Of a DNA stretch of 64,000 nucleotides, positions 52,041-62,761 are shown in pieces (position 1 is the stretch's first letter; each line of letters begins with the position of its first letter). The notes beneath the pieces are model-generated. The model was not told where the DNA came from and made no database searches. It was given only the letters and a program-made list of their open reading frames with translations. The stretch spans positions 85,128-149,127 of the forward strand of contig NZ_CALRYJ010000007.1 of assembly GCF_943372375.1 (NCBI RefSeq). Direction: 5' to 3'. The position numbers and the translations under genes are program-made. Source of the stretch: Fluviicola taffensis DSM 16823. Its GTDB lineage: Bacteria > Bacteroidota > Bacteroidia > Flavobacteriales_D > Crocinitomicaceae.

Positions 52041-52113
52041 TGCGGGGTGGAGCAGTTGGTAGCTCGTCGGGCTCATAACCCGAAGGTCGCACGTTCGAGT
52101 CGTGTCCCCGCTA
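52041..52113 (+). tRNA. tRNA-fMet (initiator, CAT), CCA not encoded
   Basis: Cloverleaf; 1:72 mismatch; anticodon stem TCGGG/CCCGA with three G-C pairs; loop CTCATAA; T-loop TTCGAGT. Confidence 0.96.
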
Positions 52114-52118
52114 CAAAG

Positions 52119-52149
52119 AAAAGGTTGTCAAGTTTTGGCAACCTTTTTT
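52119..52149 (+). terminator. tRNA terminator (duplicated at 62723-62756)
   Basis: AAAAGGTTGTCA-AGTTT-TGGCAACCTTTTTT. Confidence 0.8.
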
Positions 52150-52171
52150 GTTTTTATAGAAATCACTATTC

Positions 52172-52417
52172 ATGTTTGTCACCTATGTTTTATACTCTGC
52201 CACTTACAACAAAATCTATGTTGGTTATACATCGGATCTGATTGACCGCTTTCATTCTCACAACCAATTTGCATCAAAAGGTTACACGGTTAAATTTCGC
52301 CCGTGGGAAGTAATCTATGTTGAATTTTTTGACTCAAAGGAAGAAGCCATGAAGCGTGAGAAAGAACTAAAATCTTCCAGAGGAAGGGATTTTATAAAAA
52401 ATAAGATTTTAGAATAG
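52172..52417 (+). CDS. Stand-alone GIY-YIG nuclease
   Basis: TYVLYS..KIYVGYTSDL..R..HN, AMKREKELKS; 81 aa; stop TAG is the start of a tRNA-derived repeat. Confidence 0.9.
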   Translation: MFVTYVLYSATYNKIYVGYTSDLIDRFHSHNQFASKGYTVKFRPWEVIYVEFFDSKEEAMKREKELKSSRGRDFIKNKILE

Positions 52418-52483
52418 CTCGTCGGGCTCATATCCGTCAGCTGACGGACGCACGTTTCCGCCGCGGCGGATGTCCCCGCTACA
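52415..52483 (+). pseudogene. Partial tRNA-fMet copy with two palindromic replacements
   Basis: TAGCTCGTCGGGCTCATA[TCCGTCAGCTGACGGA]CGCACGTT[TCCGCCGCGGCGGA]TGTCCCCGCTACA, followed by a hairpin and T-run at 52487-52517. Confidence 0.9.
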
Positions 52484-52635
52484 AGGAAAAAAGGTTAATC
52501 GCAAGATTAGCCTTTTTTTATGCGCAATTTTTTGAAACGACGAGAAGTTTATGCCGACATGATTTTCAGGGAACGCGGAAGGTGTCTAGTCCTAAAATAG
52601 CGATACACAAAAAGAATAGGACTAAGACATCCGAA

Positions 52636-60100: not shown

Positions 60101-60572
60101 TACCATGATCGGCTCAGACACCCTGAAAGCATTGAATACGGCCAGCGGAACAACTTACCAGTGGGTAAATTGTGATAACAACTATGCAATTATTCCAGGA
60201 GCAACTGACAGTCTTTTCTTCGCAGCGGATACCGGAAGCTATGCTTGTATCATTACAAACACCGTTTGTGCAGACACTTCGGTTTGTGCGTACATTCAGG
60301 AGATTGGTGGAACCACCGGAATTGATCCGAATGGAAACATCTTTAACTATAAGATTTCACCGAACCCAACCAACGGTTTGGTACAGATCAGTTCCAGTTT
60401 CAATCAGCTGAACATTGAAATTTACAATGCACTGGGTGTGAAAGTCTTTGAAAAACGAACAGATTCCGGAATTACTTCGTGTAACCTATCGGAATTCGAT
60501 GCGGGGATTTACCTGATTCGTATGAGCAACGAAAGAGGTCAGATCATCACCGACCGAATCATCAAACAATAA
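57159..60572 (+). CDS. T9SS type A substrate with NHL/SMP-30-like propeller repeats
   Basis: DGNNNLYV, GQNARF, GLNARFYGPCG NHL-type repeats; LPKGLFFDPNTGTIHGTP Ig-like domain; CTD ISPNPTNGLV..AGIYLIR. Confidence 0.85.
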   Translation: MKKLRTGHWSLNSVQWNRKGFFSRIIAALIFLLTFQNASAQLIAQVSDYVGSGLNESQDGTLTQAGFKDVTSICSDGNNNLYVLEIVNGKIRKITPSGIVTTIYSDLNQNFFGSGGLSAAIHVDAFSNIYVSRGYTIAKITGQHTFQIIAGSLTEVGYTNNNIAGQGQNARFSFLNSMTSDIFGNLYISEIGEIASTERFRIRRINPFNQKVETLFTSQKPIYGLCFDANGNFVFGEGFSVVKLNPQTMVKTVVAGHPTESNHISGPGTAARFRSIADIKVVNNDIYVLECVPRVIRSFSSAFSNDYKYAKNYCYITKISNTNVVTDIAGGEIGDANGVGLNARFYGPCGMVKNSSGDLFILDDMKNLIRKITFVPPAPAPTPTYVNATPSICLGSTVDQPATITGAEMSLQITNETVPVSSGIKAACRNQNFAFVATSNDEIKKYDFNGNLVETLPAMLTNITGIAADSVNQIYAVAQDNSLPSLTAVYRLQPSGNIDLSWGPTTSGVLNNVSAIAMGSDDGLIYVADTSTSYISSINPVTAAITNLPAPGNLQLSYFKPVSMAFDVFGDMYLADIGGNQILKRSKADNNYYPVFPGLENDTLKIDGISIAHSESGYMYLSSSARNVVYELGANAAYDTTVVGRKFSNTTEFSTGFSLDEPINVIAMSSNNAGVLLIPNKASGEMRKLAYFMMKIAPRLPKGLFFDPNTGTIHGTPLQVAPYTTYTITAYGPTDSTMTNLAFSVDPSSLVSNNIGNKTSAIINTGDGLAVNFYDNSGCEPLATITDITDGNPTGSTQVKQTVATNLPFFTTSAGDTKFVRRTTEVNSQKMDSANVRIELYFTHADIVHYNANNGTQTDFSNDTTAGTMAMSILQLHTASSGNTQPITHNTTATWNTSKQVWAANFPVTKFSTFMATTPDALTTFECESTESTEFAFGCTSAEYNGVSYTVDGEYTLNYQNQYGCDSIVHLIVFLDNNSEITMIGSDTLKALNTASGTTYQWVNCDNNYAIIPGATDSLFFAADTGSYACIITNTVCADTSVCAYIQEIGGTTGIDPNGNIFNYKISPNPTNGLVQISSSFNQLNIEIYNALGVKVFEKRTDSGITSCNLSEFDAGIYLIRMSNERGQIITDRIIKQ

Positions 60573-60582
60573 TTAACAAACA

Positions 60583-60610
60583 AAGAGGATGTGTCTAGAC
60601 GCATCCTCTT
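60583..60610. terminator. Intergenic hairpin
   Basis: AAGAGGATGTGTCTAGACGCATCCTCTT. Confidence 0.55.
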
Positions 60611-60643
60611 CCTGTTTCAATCACATAATCAGTTATTTAAAAA

Positions 60644-62620
60644 ATGAAACAATTCTTTACACTCCTCTTTTTGGTTATCAGCAGTGCAGGTATTGCACAA
60701 AGCTATTCCGGTGGTTCCGGTACGGTAGCTGACCCGTATTTGATTGCCAACAAAGCCGATTTAAAATACTTAAGCGAAAATGTGAGTGAAGTAGGTTACC
60801 ACTTCAAACAAACAGCAAATATCGTATTCACATCCGCTGATTTTGCTCCGGGTGGTGACTTTTACAATGGTGGATCCGGGTTTGATCCGATCGGAGGAAA
60901 CATCAACCAGTACTTTATCGGGACGTATGACGGTAACCATTTCTTTATTGATAGCTTGTATATCAACAGACCAAACGAGGACGGTATCGGATTTTTCGCA
61001 TCTGTTAATCATCCCAATGCTGAAGTACGTGCTGTGGATTTAAGAAACGTAACGATTACCGGACAGAGTTATATTGGGGTGATTTCAGGAATAGTAAGTT
61101 CTGGGGCTTCTATTTTAAATTGTTCGGTTACCGGAACCATTTCAGGACAAACAACCATTGGTGGGTTGATCGGAGAGGTTGACTTAGCCACCGTTAACAA
61201 CTGCTTCACCCGTGTAAACGTGAACGGAGGCGATCTCGTTGCCGGATTGATTGCTTATGCTTCTGAGGTAACCATCAGCAATTGTTCGACTTCCGGAAAT
61301 TTAACCGGTCAGGAACAAGTAGGAGGACTTGTTGCTACTATACATGACTCCTTCATTACCAATTGCTATTCCCTTGCAGCCGTTAGCGGAACTAATTATG
61401 TGGGTGGTTTGGTGGGTAATTTTGGTTTGGGTTCAATAGTCATTACCAATTGCTACGCCGCAGGAGCAGTAAGTGGTACTTCATTTGTGGGCGGTTTAAT
61501 TGGTACTTTAACCAGCGGTAATACGGTTAATAATTCTTTTTGGGATGTGGAAACAACCGGACAATTGGTCAGCAGCGGCGGAACTCCGAAATCCACCCTG
61601 GAAATGAGATCACAAAGCACGTTTACAACTGCTACCTGGGATTTCATCAATGAATCTGCCAACGGAACCGACGACATCTGGAAAATGGGGGAATGTAAAA
61701 ACAACGGTTACCCGGTTTTTAGCTGGCAGGCCAGTGAAGTATATCCGGATCTAACATTTGGCTCAATTAACGGGAATGTTTTGGATTCAACAACTATTTG
61801 TTACAATGAGTCTGCTAATATACATGCAATGTCCTGGTACAATGTCACTTGGCATGACAGTATTACTGCCGGTAATTTAGTATCATCCAGTAGTCCGTTC
61901 ACTACACCAAATCTAACAGATACAACAATTTACTACGCTCAGGCAGATAACGGAACATGTATCAATCCGTTTCGTTTAGCATTTACAGTTGTGGTTCGAC
62001 CTGAAAACATTACCAATCAAACGTTTGAGTTCTGTGGAAGCGGATCTGTTACTGTAGGAACCAATACCTACACCACTACCGGAGTTTATACGGATGTTTT
62101 TACAGATGCCCATTCATGCGATAGTACCATCATTACAACTCTGACCATTCATCCGGATGTGAATACCGGAGTAACAGTGGACAGTTTGACGATTTCTGCT
62201 CTGGGAACCGGAACTTACCAATGGATCAATTGTGCTACTAACGCTGCTATTTCAGGAGAAACAGCTCAAAGTTTTACAGCAACAGCCAACGGATCTTATG
62301 CTGTTATTGTTTCCAATGGCAACTGTAGCGATACTTCTGCCTGCGTGAACATTACAACGGTTGGTTTAACTGACCTTACTGCTAATTCCAACTTCCGGGC
62401 TTACCCGAATCCAACGAAGGGTTCTGTTACCATTGACCTTGGAGCTGCGTACGCTGATGCAACGGTTGTGATTAAAAATGCGATCGGTCAGGTTGTTTGC
62501 TCCCAATCAATTGGTTCATCCGGAAAAACAGATTGCTCGATTGCAGGCGAAGCCGGAATTTATTTCCTGGAAGTGAAAACCGACAGTCAGCAGACCGTTT
62601 TGAAACTGATAAAAGAATAG
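60644..62620 (+). CDS. T9SS type A substrate with GLUG-repeat beta-helix
   Basis: GSGTVADPYLI, repeated VGGLVG/IGGLIG, SFWDVETTGQ; CTD AYPNPTKGSV..AGIYFLEV. Confidence 0.88.
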   Translation: MKQFFTLLFLVISSAGIAQSYSGGSGTVADPYLIANKADLKYLSENVSEVGYHFKQTANIVFTSADFAPGGDFYNGGSGFDPIGGNINQYFIGTYDGNHFFIDSLYINRPNEDGIGFFASVNHPNAEVRAVDLRNVTITGQSYIGVISGIVSSGASILNCSVTGTISGQTTIGGLIGEVDLATVNNCFTRVNVNGGDLVAGLIAYASEVTISNCSTSGNLTGQEQVGGLVATIHDSFITNCYSLAAVSGTNYVGGLVGNFGLGSIVITNCYAAGAVSGTSFVGGLIGTLTSGNTVNNSFWDVETTGQLVSSGGTPKSTLEMRSQSTFTTATWDFINESANGTDDIWKMGECKNNGYPVFSWQASEVYPDLTFGSINGNVLDSTTICYNESANIHAMSWYNVTWHDSITAGNLVSSSSPFTTPNLTDTTIYYAQADNGTCINPFRLAFTVVVRPENITNQTFEFCGSGSVTVGTNTYTTTGVYTDVFTDAHSCDSTIITTLTIHPDVNTGVTVDSLTISALGTGTYQWINCATNAAISGETAQSFTATANGSYAVIVSNGNCSDTSACVNITTVGLTDLTANSNFRAYPNPTKGSVTIDLGAAYADATVVIKNAIGQVVCSQSIGSSGKTDCSIAGEAGIYFLEVKTDSQQTVLKLIKE

Positions 62621-62650
62621 GACTAGTGTGATTAAACATAGGGTCTCCTG

Positions 62651-62761
62651 TTAAAAGCAGGTAATAATGTCTGCATCTTCAGCGAGTTCATTGTTCGATA
62701 CCGGTAGCCTTCCCGCTACAAAGAAAAAGGTTGTCAAGTTTTGGCAACCTTTTTTTGTTTT
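62651..62761. repeat. Right junction: conserved arm plus tRNA 3' end and terminator repeat
   Basis: Minus frame VAGRLPVSNNELAEDADIITCF*; CCCGCTACAAAGAAAAAGGTTGTCAAGTTTTGGCAACCTTTTTTTGTTTT. Confidence 0.85.

Follow-up and report, generated by a model that had tools for sequence, protein, structure and literature searches.

A minimal GIY-YIG nuclease gene ending on a hairpin-bearing pseudo-tRNA forms a conserved module beside tRNA(CAU) genes of Bacteroidota

What kind of element leaves a row of edited tRNA copies behind a single working tRNA gene? The question is raised by a stretch of 64,000 nucleotides (nt) from Fluviicola taffensis DSM 16823 (contig NZ_CALRYJ010000007.1, positions 85,128 to 149,127; referred to here as the window), which derives from lake water and in which an intact tRNA-Met(CAT) gene, the single tRNA gene of the window, is followed by a gene for a stand-alone GIY-YIG nuclease of 81 amino acids (aa) and by four partial copies of the tRNA on the same strand (c2-c5) that split about 10.6 kb into blocks. 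An initial annotation had described an intact tRNA trailed by same-orientation partial copies, each followed by a hairpin, and modules carrying GIY-YIG, oxidase, VIT1, AraC and two T9SS genes; ARAGORN, Rfam and repeat comparison agree with the former description and Pfam with the latter. It had taken the array for an integron-like accretion platform, possibly driven by the nuclease, a proposal to which we return below. Here we report that the core of the locus (52041-52519) is one copy of a module that recurs across the phylum Bacteroidota and that comprises a tRNA(CAU) gene with its terminator, a GIY-YIG gene of ~80 aa and a pseudo-tRNA (approximately tRNA positions 20-73) overlapping the stop codon of that gene. 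We found no description of this tRNA-GIY-YIG-pseudo-tRNA module in the literature on GIY-YIG proteins, YhbQ, tRNA pseudogenes, or homing endonucleases and tRNA, coverage of which was incomplete, and the module appears to be undescribed. For the region as a whole our best explanation, which we hold with belief and doubt in about equal measure, is a composite of a selfish, homing-like module at the tRNA(CAU) gene, two decayed serine-recombinase islands and an oxidase insertion.

Relatives of the nuclease were found by a profile scan with one genome per species, which gave 516 confirmed relatives; the best 80 were examined and, together with three close relatives and the window, make up the 84 loci on which the counts below are based (the DNA stretches around the module in relatives carry L-labels such as L001, a complete Fluviicola genome, and L022, Flavobacterium poyangense). 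The best 80 span Flavobacteriales, Cytophagales, Sphingobacteriales, Chitinophagales, Saprospiraceae, Bacteroidales and Balneolales, i.e., most orders of the phylum. A same-strand tRNA-Met(CAT) gene lies upstream of the GIY-YIG gene in 70/84 loci, with a median gap of ~57 nt, and in several loci without an upstream tRNA the stretch is ended by a contig end. A pseudo-tRNA tail follows, or overlaps, the gene in 71 of the 84, which answers in the affirmative a survey that the initial annotation had proposed, namely whether GIY-YIG genes end on tRNA-fragment repeats across Bacteroidota. In the window the stop codon TAG of the gene is tRNA-like positions 20-22 of c2. The close relatives L001, L002, L006 and L007 have an 81-aa open reading frame (ORF) with 83-85% identity (BLASTP) that ends on the same TAG and is followed, as in the window, by TAGCTCGTCGGGCTCATA-TCCGTCAGCTGACGGA-CGCACGTT. 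Homologues measure 76-132 aa, the extensions being translated pseudo-tRNA; where the ORF runs into the tail, the C-terminus ...GLISVS is the translation of GGGCTCATATCCGTCAGC. The gene is present, in different contexts and orientations, in all five Fluviicola-like genomes used for conservation counts, a set that came entirely from searches starting with the protein.

The suspicion voiced in the initial annotation that the internal copies are edited in a way that ordinary attachment-site (att) scars are not proved well founded: the edits are the palindromes TCCGTCAGCTGACGGA and TCCGCCGCGGCGGA, which it had not mentioned. The first of these is the hallmark of the module. Its consensus, TCCGYC-loop-GRCGGA, replaces tRNA positions 38-47, and its stem occurs as TCCGCC/GGCGGA (82 cases), TCCGTC/GACGGA (25), TCCGTT/AACGGA (2) and TCCGCT/AGCGGA (1), the outer pairs TCCG...CGGA being invariant and the inner pairs showing compensatory changes. 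Among the five Fluviicola-like genomes the first 42 nt of the tail are invariant (42/42), the hairpin included (16/16), against 19/81 third codon positions of the gene, which places the hairpin under selection. Hairpins of this form are almost confined to pseudo-tRNAs, with ~5 unrelated matches in 1.35 Mb. A search of pseudo-tRNA tails with Rfam 15 gave no match at E values up to 5; only the true tRNA passes. ARAGORN reports two hairpin-bearing pseudo-tRNAs of L031 (1954-2029 and 1419-1495) as tRNA, assigning tRNA-Met to one of them and tRNA-??? with the anticodon 'ca' to the other, and such pseudo-tRNAs may be mis-annotated as genes in public genomes.

The other end of the tail tells of its relation to the neighbouring tRNA. 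Its last 30 nt, which correspond to the T arm and the 3' strand of the acceptor stem, equal the local tRNA at 29/30 nt in ~45 loci, although T arms vary between taxa. The acceptor strand of the tail has no pairing partner and yet matches the tRNA, which points to concerted evolution of tail and tRNA at the DNA level. Within the tail, the T loop turns over quickly, in contrast to the unchanging hairpin at positions 38-47: the T arm is intact in the L001 tail, the window tail carries TCCGCCGCGGCGGA, and in the tails of L006, L007 and L002 (e.g., L007 10286-10315) another hairpin, GTCAGTCCTTTGACTGA, takes the place of the T arm's 3' half. A T-loop hairpin as in c2 and c3 of the window recurs in L012, L042, L063 and L071, with a TCCCGA...TCGGGA variant elsewhere.

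The nuclease encoded by the module is small. Its catalytic domain covers residues 2-71 of the 81 aa and there is no DNA-binding domain. Besides the PF01541 match, an AlphaFold2 model (mean predicted local distance difference test score, pLDDT, 88.8) shows the beta-beta-alpha-beta-alpha order of the GIY-YIG superfamily, and Y5, Y16, G18, R26, H30 and E63, which we take to be the GIY-YIG catalytic set, are invariant in 18 homologues. UPF0213/YhbQ and Slx1 are the best matches in both sequence and fold (1ywl, 1zg2, 6seh, 4xlg, 7cq2), UPF0213 being of the same size class: a profile search against the PDB gave E values of 3.7e-6 for 1ywl, 1.1e-5 for 1zg2 and 3e-4 to 9e-3 for Slx1, and Foldseek with the model returned the same ranking, with I-TevI at only E 0.25. 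The protein thus falls nearest to the UPF0213/Slx1 clade by profile as well as by fold. Slx1 is a structure-specific nuclease that works with Slx4, and UPF0213 proteins are without an established role; to our knowledge neither has been reported beside tRNA genes or with a pseudo-tRNA. An exact look-up found no record of the window's protein, NCBIfam and PADLOC gave no family or model match for it, and PHROGs only weak generic endonuclease matches. The profile found no relatives among 2.9 million viral contigs, and a phage origin is therefore not supported. The ratio of nonsynonymous to synonymous substitution (dN/dS) is 0.03-0.10, with synonymous sites saturated, which indicates strong purifying selection on the gene.

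How such a gene could be expressed is suggested by its position behind the tRNA, whose C1:A72 mismatch and GGG/CCC anticodon stem, read from the sequence, are initiator features. A candidate promoter upstream of the tRNA fits TTG-N19-TAnnTTTG, which we take to be the Bacteroidota promoter consensus, and L001 and L007 have a stretch much like it. An intrinsic terminator lies between tRNA and gene in nearly all of the 55 short gaps when these are judged by eye (a crude script flagged only 18), often ending less than 15 nt before the start codon. Transcripts of the GIY-YIG gene would then start at the tRNA promoter and read through the terminator. The ORF of a close relative is spanned by a soil metatranscriptome contig; as DNA carry-over is possible, this contig is weak evidence for transcription.

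The module is tied to one anticodon but not to one tRNA. The initiator tRNA is used in 59 loci and a second CAU-anticodon tRNA, possibly elongator Met or Ile2, in 23; one metagenome-assembled genome carries a module at each of the two types (L032, L067). Both tRNAs share TCATAACCCNNAGGTC, and the replaced positions 38-47 lie inside that stretch. In the nuclease tree the two tRNA types are intermixed and sequences group by taxon, which points to repeated movement between the two tRNA(CAU) genes. Copy number changes as well. Tandem arrays of nuclease plus tail occur in 22/84 loci, with units of ~350-400 nt and up to five copies that are mostly 93-100% identical within an array, while genera differ by 30-45% in protein. 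From another sample, a 425-nt contig of a close relative (run X24, contig 21) joins 52448 back to 52088, a junction expected either of a tandem repeat or of a 361-nt circle of terminator, GIY-YIG gene and tail. In addition, ~20 loci have arrays of 5' pseudo-tRNA units on the upstream side of the real tRNA, each unit made of tRNA positions 1-37, the hairpin, positions 48 to ~61 and a leader of ~20-45 nt, and all of them truncated at the T loop; in L063 (9620-9920), L075 (9670-9880), L028, L030, L041, L058 and L006 (9749-9815) such units number two to three or more. There is no space for a promoter per unit, so that the units would belong to the pre-tRNA leader.

On this comparative evidence the module would most likely be a chromosomal counterpart of SegB: a small and selfish element, restricted to tRNA(CAU) genes, that belongs to the homing or segmental-amplification type. 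In such a cycle, terminator read-through would yield a low level of nuclease, which would break tRNA(CAU)-like DNA; recombinational repair between the tRNA and its pseudo-copies would then copy the gene and keep the pseudo-tRNA equal to the local tRNA. The same repair could build tandem arrays and move the unit between the two tRNA(CAU) genes, and the nuclease would either be kept from attacking the hairpin-bearing copy or have need of it. The concerted evolution of tail and tRNA, the switching between the two tRNA(CAU) genes and the arrays would be indirect signs of homing.

SegB is a free-standing GIY-YIG endonuclease in the tRNA cluster of phage T4 that homes, recognising a motif in the T arm of tRNA genes (PMC2330249). 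In T6, SegB makes cuts within tRNA genes and drives a recombination-dependent segmental amplification in which segB is multiplied along with tRNA-Tyr, and segB genes of phages show enrichment close to tRNA genes (PMC13096335). The module shares with SegB the enzyme family, the linkage to tRNA genes and tandem amplification, here of nuclease and pseudo-tRNA units. SegB is, however, a much larger protein, whereas the Bacteroidota nuclease consists of the catalytic domain only and is nearer to UPF0213/Slx1 than to I-TevI. The extra length of SegB includes a DNA-binding region. Unlike phage SegB, the module is chromosomal, phylum-wide and absent from the viral contigs scanned; it is also limited to tRNAs with the CAU anticodon, and its hairpin-substituted pseudo-tRNA has no SegB counterpart. 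Given these differences we class it as Seg-like in its working, not as a member of the Seg family.

Several facts weigh against a selfish homing element. A protein of 81 aa without a DNA-binding domain is unlike every characterised GIY-YIG homing enzyme, in which a catalytic and a DNA-binding domain would be expected together, and it makes sequence-specific cutting hard to picture. The resident functional tRNA retains the supposed target, unprotected. A hairpin that served immunity only would need no conserved sequence, yet TCCG...CGGA is invariant phylum-wide. Near-universal presence at one locus combined with strong purifying selection looks more like a host function than like the decay typical of homing genes, and the viral contigs held no relatives. 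The upstream 5' pseudo-tRNA arrays are unexplained by homing, as are the palindromes in D arms, T loops and a terminator loop that are described below. Because the missing DNA-binding domain, the unprotected tRNA, the conserved hairpin and the purifying selection are awkward for homing, we regard the readings that invoke an RNA partner or a host function as jointly a tentative possibility, though each is unlikely when taken singly.

In an RNA-level system the nuclease would act on tRNA(CAU) or other RNA, and the hairpin-bearing pseudo-tRNA RNAs, i.e., the tail on the nuclease mRNA and the 5' arrays in the pre-tRNA leader, would serve as decoy, antitoxin or partner, as in type III toxin-antitoxin systems. 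The order of promoter, pseudo-tRNA repeats where present, tRNA, terminator, nuclease and pseudo-tRNA mirrors the repeats-terminator-toxin layout of ToxIN, where, as would be the case here, RNA repeats would far outnumber nuclease mRNA. In the hairpin not only the pairing but also the sequence is conserved, which is more than immunity at the DNA level needs, and the replaced stretch begins right after the anticodon; some toxins cut initiator tRNA just after the anticodon. The strong purifying selection on the gene and the soil metatranscriptome contig over the ORF can be counted on the same side. We nevertheless consider such a system unlikely. We know of no GIY-YIG domain that acts as an RNase, the nearest folds, Slx1 and UPF0213, are DNA enzymes or uncharacterised, and PADLOC gives no match. 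ToxN is an RNase of a different fold, and the repeats of the module are tRNA-derived, present upstream in only ~20/84 loci and co-evolving with a neighbouring gene. The unpaired 3' acceptor strand of the tail stays equal to the tRNA, which points to gene conversion of DNA, and the near-identity of most array copies is typical of DNA-level amplification. A related and rather improbable version would make the nuclease and the hairpin pseudo-tRNA a two-part system whose transcript is a working partner, either a guide to tRNA(CAU) genes, in the manner of the TnpB/IscB guide RNAs that overlap gene 3' ends, or a decoy or antitoxin, as ToxI repeats restrain ToxN. If so, an 80-aa GIY-YIG domain would get its specificity from the RNA of its own 3' end.

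Equally unlikely, in our view, is a domesticated host function, in which the protein would be a housekeeping nuclease for tRNA(CAU) genes or transcripts, active in processing or in resolving structures, and the pseudo-tRNA a cis-regulatory or mRNA-stabilising 3' element. The same locus throughout the phylum, the low dN/dS, read-through that would couple transcription of the gene to that of the tRNA and the lack of relatives in viral contigs all suit this reading. A housekeeping gene is less easily reconciled with one to five copies per locus, with the frameshifted or truncated copies in L017, L061 and L082, with tRNA-Met genes in L031 and L034 beside which the module is missing, with a unit that moves between two different tRNA genes, and with the copy in L002 that lies away from any tRNA.

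The palindromes of the module also turn up outside positions 38-47. They replace the D arm in L075 (9684-9697), L058, L041 and L049, and the 14-mer TCCGCCGCGGCGGA sits in the loop of the tRNA terminator of L006 (9940-9975). The GC palindrome TCCGCC..GGCGGA appears to move between hairpin loops across genomes. Its sites are all loops of inverted repeats, and one may speculate that such sites would suit a structure-specific enzyme of the Slx1 type. A nuclease-type gene flanked by short GC palindromes that appear in new places recalls repetitive extragenic palindromic (REP) sequences and their associated RAYT transposases; here, however, the palindromes are confined to pseudo-tRNAs at tRNA(CAU) loci and the enzyme belongs to another family.

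What, then, of the blocks downstream of the module? The features on which the following paragraphs draw are collected in Table 1.

Table 1. Features of the tRNA-Met locus in the window (positions of the window; T, terminator; R2, second repeat family)
Feature	Position	Strand	Basis or remarks
Probable tRNA promoter: TTG, 19 nt, TATCTTTG (Bacteroidota type)	51947-51976	+	read from sequence
Initiator tRNA-Met (anticodon CAT), intact	52041-52114 (ARAGORN), 52041-52113 (Rfam)	+	ARAGORN; Rfam tRNA 61.9 bits
T1, intrinsic terminator of tRNA, upstream of GIY-YIG gene	52117-52149	+	by eye, such a terminator also in nearly all of the 55 short gaps of other loci
81-aa stand-alone GIY-YIG nuclease gene	52172-52417	+	Pfam PF01541, E 1.1e-18
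c2, pseudo-tRNA tail	52415-52483	+	tRNA 20-37 exact, hairpin 1, GCACGTT, hairpin 2, tRNA 63-74 exact
Hairpin 1, TCCGTCAGCTGACGGA, in place of tRNA positions 38-47 of c2	52433-52448	.	conserved hallmark of the module
Hairpin 2, TCCGCCGCGGCGGA, in place of T loop of c2	52457-52470		identical in c3 (54310-54323)
T2, terminator-like hairpin and T run after c2 tail	52486-52519	+	sequence; conserved in L001
Spacer common to window and L001	52520-52584	+	blastn match to L001 up to 52575; alignment
Cargo block 1: BBE/FAD-linked oxidase	52636-54183	-	Pfam
c3, decayed tRNA-fMet copy	54288-54336, weaker likeness back to ~54276	+	positions 34-55 91% identical; 3' end exact
T3, terminator after c3, homologous to T4	54340-54371	+	
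Large serine recombinase remnant	54416-54631	-	phmmer vs 1.84 billion representatives; Pfam on the matches
VIT1 family iron/manganese transporter	54702-55421	-	Pfam, E 8.6e-67
Possible C-terminal cold-shock protein remnant	55662-55724	+	CSD profile positions 43-62, E 0.23, weak
R2a and T1-like terminator	55765-55857	+	repeat comparison
c4	55874-55914 (with T4 to 55949)	+	tRNA 42-55 exact, hairpin variant TTCGCGGTGGCGTA, 3' end
E2 cargo: AraC-family regulator	55960-57105	-	Pfam
E2 cargo: two type IX secretion (T9SS) substrates	57159-60572 and 60644-62620	+	Pfam
R2b, then c5 (62708-62720), then T1 copy	62664-62761	+	repeat comparison
c5, last 9-13 nt of tRNA	62708/62712-62720	+	then T1 copy

The copies beyond c2 are of a different sort. 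A terminator-like hairpin follows every copy, and for c5 the copied sequence itself includes the terminator, 62725-62761 being a 95% copy of the tRNA terminator at 52119-52155. The outer pair of repeats, which the initial annotation had described as sharing 48-50 bp with the terminator included, is indeed a direct repeat of 48-50 nt (52108-52155 against 62712-62761) derived from the 3' end of the tRNA. Within the array, c2 and c3 share the identical 34-mer GCACGTTTCCGCCGCGGCGGATGTCCCCGCTACA (0 occurrences in 100 shuffles), the T loop of c3 being replaced by hairpin 2, and c4 with T4 is a 5'-truncated copy of c3 with T3, terminators included. This kinship of c3 and c4 had escaped the initial annotation, as had a second repeat family, R2 (55765-55857 and 62664-62756, 72% identical over 93 nt), and a short fragment, GGGAACGCGGAAGGTG, at 52569-52584 that ends the spacer and resembles, by eye, the 5' part of c3 (54281-54301). 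We considered whether c4 might be the tail of a deleted second GIY-YIG gene; c4 has the true tRNA sequence GAAGGTC at positions 42-48 instead of the hairpin, which makes it a copy of the c3 type. The 5' portion of c3 might be read as the leader and 5' end of a tRNA that has lost its D arm; the end of the spacer (GGGAACGC...GAAGG, 52569-52584) gives the better match.

The repeats are interleaved, c3/T3 ... R2a with a T1-like terminator being followed by c4/T4 ... R2b with T1, an arrangement characteristic of two like-ended elements in tandem. We infer that c3/T3 and c4/T4 are the left ends, and R2a and R2b plus T1 the right ends, of two decayed tandem islands of one family: E1 would run from c3/T3 to R2a joined to an old tRNA 3' end and terminator, and E2 from c4/T4 to R2b, c5 and the T1 copy. 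The islands would have inserted at the 3' end of extra tRNA-fMet copies, c3 and c4 being the targets, which have since decayed; R2 would be the right end of an island joined to the old tRNA end (CCGCTAC) and T1, and T3/T4 the left end. R2a is 82% identical to L002 9875-9978, and within 62664-62761 there is 92% identity to the tRNA end and T1 of L001. In L002, R2 and T1 lie immediately 5' of an intact GIY-YIG gene with its tail; cargo of RHS and DpnII type is found upstream, and no tRNA lies within 10 kb.

A recombinase is present only as a remnant of ~70 codons, 44 nt from T3 and reading towards c3/T3. An exhaustive phmmer search, whose matches carry Resolvase, Recombinase and Zn_ribbon domains, aligned it with residues ~460-510 of large serine recombinases of 535-552 aa, or roughly with 430-478 of a protein of ~540 aa, so that the N-terminal catalytic part and the last ~50 aa are missing. 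This bears out the recombinase remnant claimed in the initial annotation; the cold-shock protein (csp) remnant claimed alongside it gave only the weak CSD match of Table 1. Neither Pfam on the recombinase fragment nor tblastn against plasmids found a match, and a word-based homologue search returned only the fragment itself and one piece of 61 aa. Between this remnant and the VIT1 gene, a short ORF on the minus strand (54595-54681, MNDAHFHLVVNHLPLIFPLVGAIVLVTD) resembles the start of a membrane protein, with no family found. In L022 a large serine recombinase is intact; like the remnant it runs towards a pseudo-tRNA, which it meets at the corresponding place, and it shares the motif ...YPE..F......RT.R.N with the window remnant, a one-gene cargo lying between the recombinase-side pseudo-tRNA and the GIY-YIG tail. 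In L022 13024-20234 the serine recombinase is followed by cas1 and a long array of 66-nt period (a CRISPR array), and this CRISPR-Cas locus may lie in, or adjoin, the island.

Close relatives lack the cargo at this locus. A blastn comparison with the DNA retrieved around the module from L001, L006 and L007 found nothing similar to the cargo, and to the right of 52575 only the T1 copy (62712-62764) is shared. In L001 ~22 nt separate the common spacer from a 3' fragment of the tRNA (positions 58-74), which has a terminator behind it; at this point the window has 10.1 kb. That tRNA-derived repeats bound blocks which are missing here in close relatives is thus supported. As in tRNA-anchored tandem islands, there are tRNA 3'-end direct repeats (the c3/T3-c4/T4 and R2a-R2b pairs besides the outer one), a site empty in close relatives and two like-ended elements; the recombinase at one end, beside a tRNA-like junction, is a remnant, and, unlike the usual islands, the junction copies have a T-loop hairpin and the islands appear in extra decayed tRNA-fMet copies downstream of the module and not in the working tRNA. 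Some points weigh against the islands as well: the crossover point is guessed, and long direct repeats are not what large serine recombinases normally leave behind. A metagenome scan for intact islands with the R2-derived 15-mer TTGTTCGATACCGGT gave 120 chance matches, none flanked by R2, and found no intact R2-family element; in base composition the cargo was not distinct from its surroundings.

Could ordinary tandem islands account for everything, with all tRNA fragments being att scars and the GIY-YIG gene a passenger? The outer direct repeat, the recombinase remnant and the relatives without cargo would be as expected. The hairpin tail, however, accompanies the gene in 71/84 loci, mostly without an island, the hairpin is under selection, and the gene is kept in relatives that lack the cargo. 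For c2 this account is contradicted; for c3, c4 and c5 it is viable, and as an explanation of the whole region we find it very improbable.

The integron-like platform, in which the GIY-YIG nuclease itself would capture or maintain cassettes between tRNA-derived sites, fares no better. It has in its favour that cargo is bounded by pseudo-tRNA-derived repeats in the window and likewise in L022, L045 and L053, that the oxidase block has no recombinase of its own, and that nuclease breaks could in principle promote capture; like an integron, the locus has blocks separated by same-orientation, hairpin-forming repeats at a fixed anchor. Yet kilobase cargo lies between pseudo-tRNA copies in only 4/84 GIY-YIG loci, so that there is no general link between nuclease and cargo: the nuclease is linked to the pseudo-tRNA. 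No IntI-type integrase gene was found in 48.8-64 kb of the window, there is no attI, and in place of attC sites there are tRNA-derived repeats, each followed by a terminator, that separate blocks of one to three genes on both strands. Two of the three blocks are accounted for by the remnant of the serine recombinase together with the R2 ends, and the outer junctions fit island ends; for these the nuclease, which the initial annotation had named as the only intact DNA-acting enzyme, is not needed. We therefore give up its proposal of an accretion platform as highly improbable. In the composite that we prefer, the oxidase block, flanked by a short imperfect repeat (52569-52584 and ~54279-54301), would be a third, separate insertion.

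The wider neighbourhood of the module is variable too. Two stretches of the window, 36326-42200 (four genes) and 45218-51946 (a 1119-aa protein, a tetratricopeptide repeat (TPR) histidine kinase and a LytTR response regulator), are absent from L006 and L007, where sigma-54...lactamase_B, Der-Era-YiaAB and the tRNA lie close together. Relative to YiaAB-Era-Der, the tRNA, GIY-YIG gene and tail are inverted in L001 (9772-13712 against window 42247-52575), which is consistent with recombination between inverted repeats of tRNA-Met type. Regulators of the LytTR type, in some cases accompanied by a histidine kinase, adjoin tRNA-Met/GIY-YIG loci in unrelated genomes (window 51042-51743, L053 11388-12224, L045 16943-18655), a recurrence that may be coincidence, as the family is common in the phylum.

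The module accounts for many of the genes annotated as 'GIY-YIG nuclease family protein' beside tRNA-Met in Bacteroidota, and its pseudo-tRNAs, as the L031 example illustrates, are possible miscalls of tRNA finders. If our reading of the module as a homing-like element is true, it would be a chromosomal and minimal (80 aa) counterpart of the tRNA-linked homing GIY-YIG nucleases of phages, widespread in one phylum. It raises the questions of how a nuclease without a DNA-binding domain would find one kind of gene and what role the conserved hairpin plays, whether pseudo-tRNAs serve as landing sites for genomic islands, and whether elements of this kind cause essential tRNA genes to change in copy number, to undergo gene conversion and to be rearranged.

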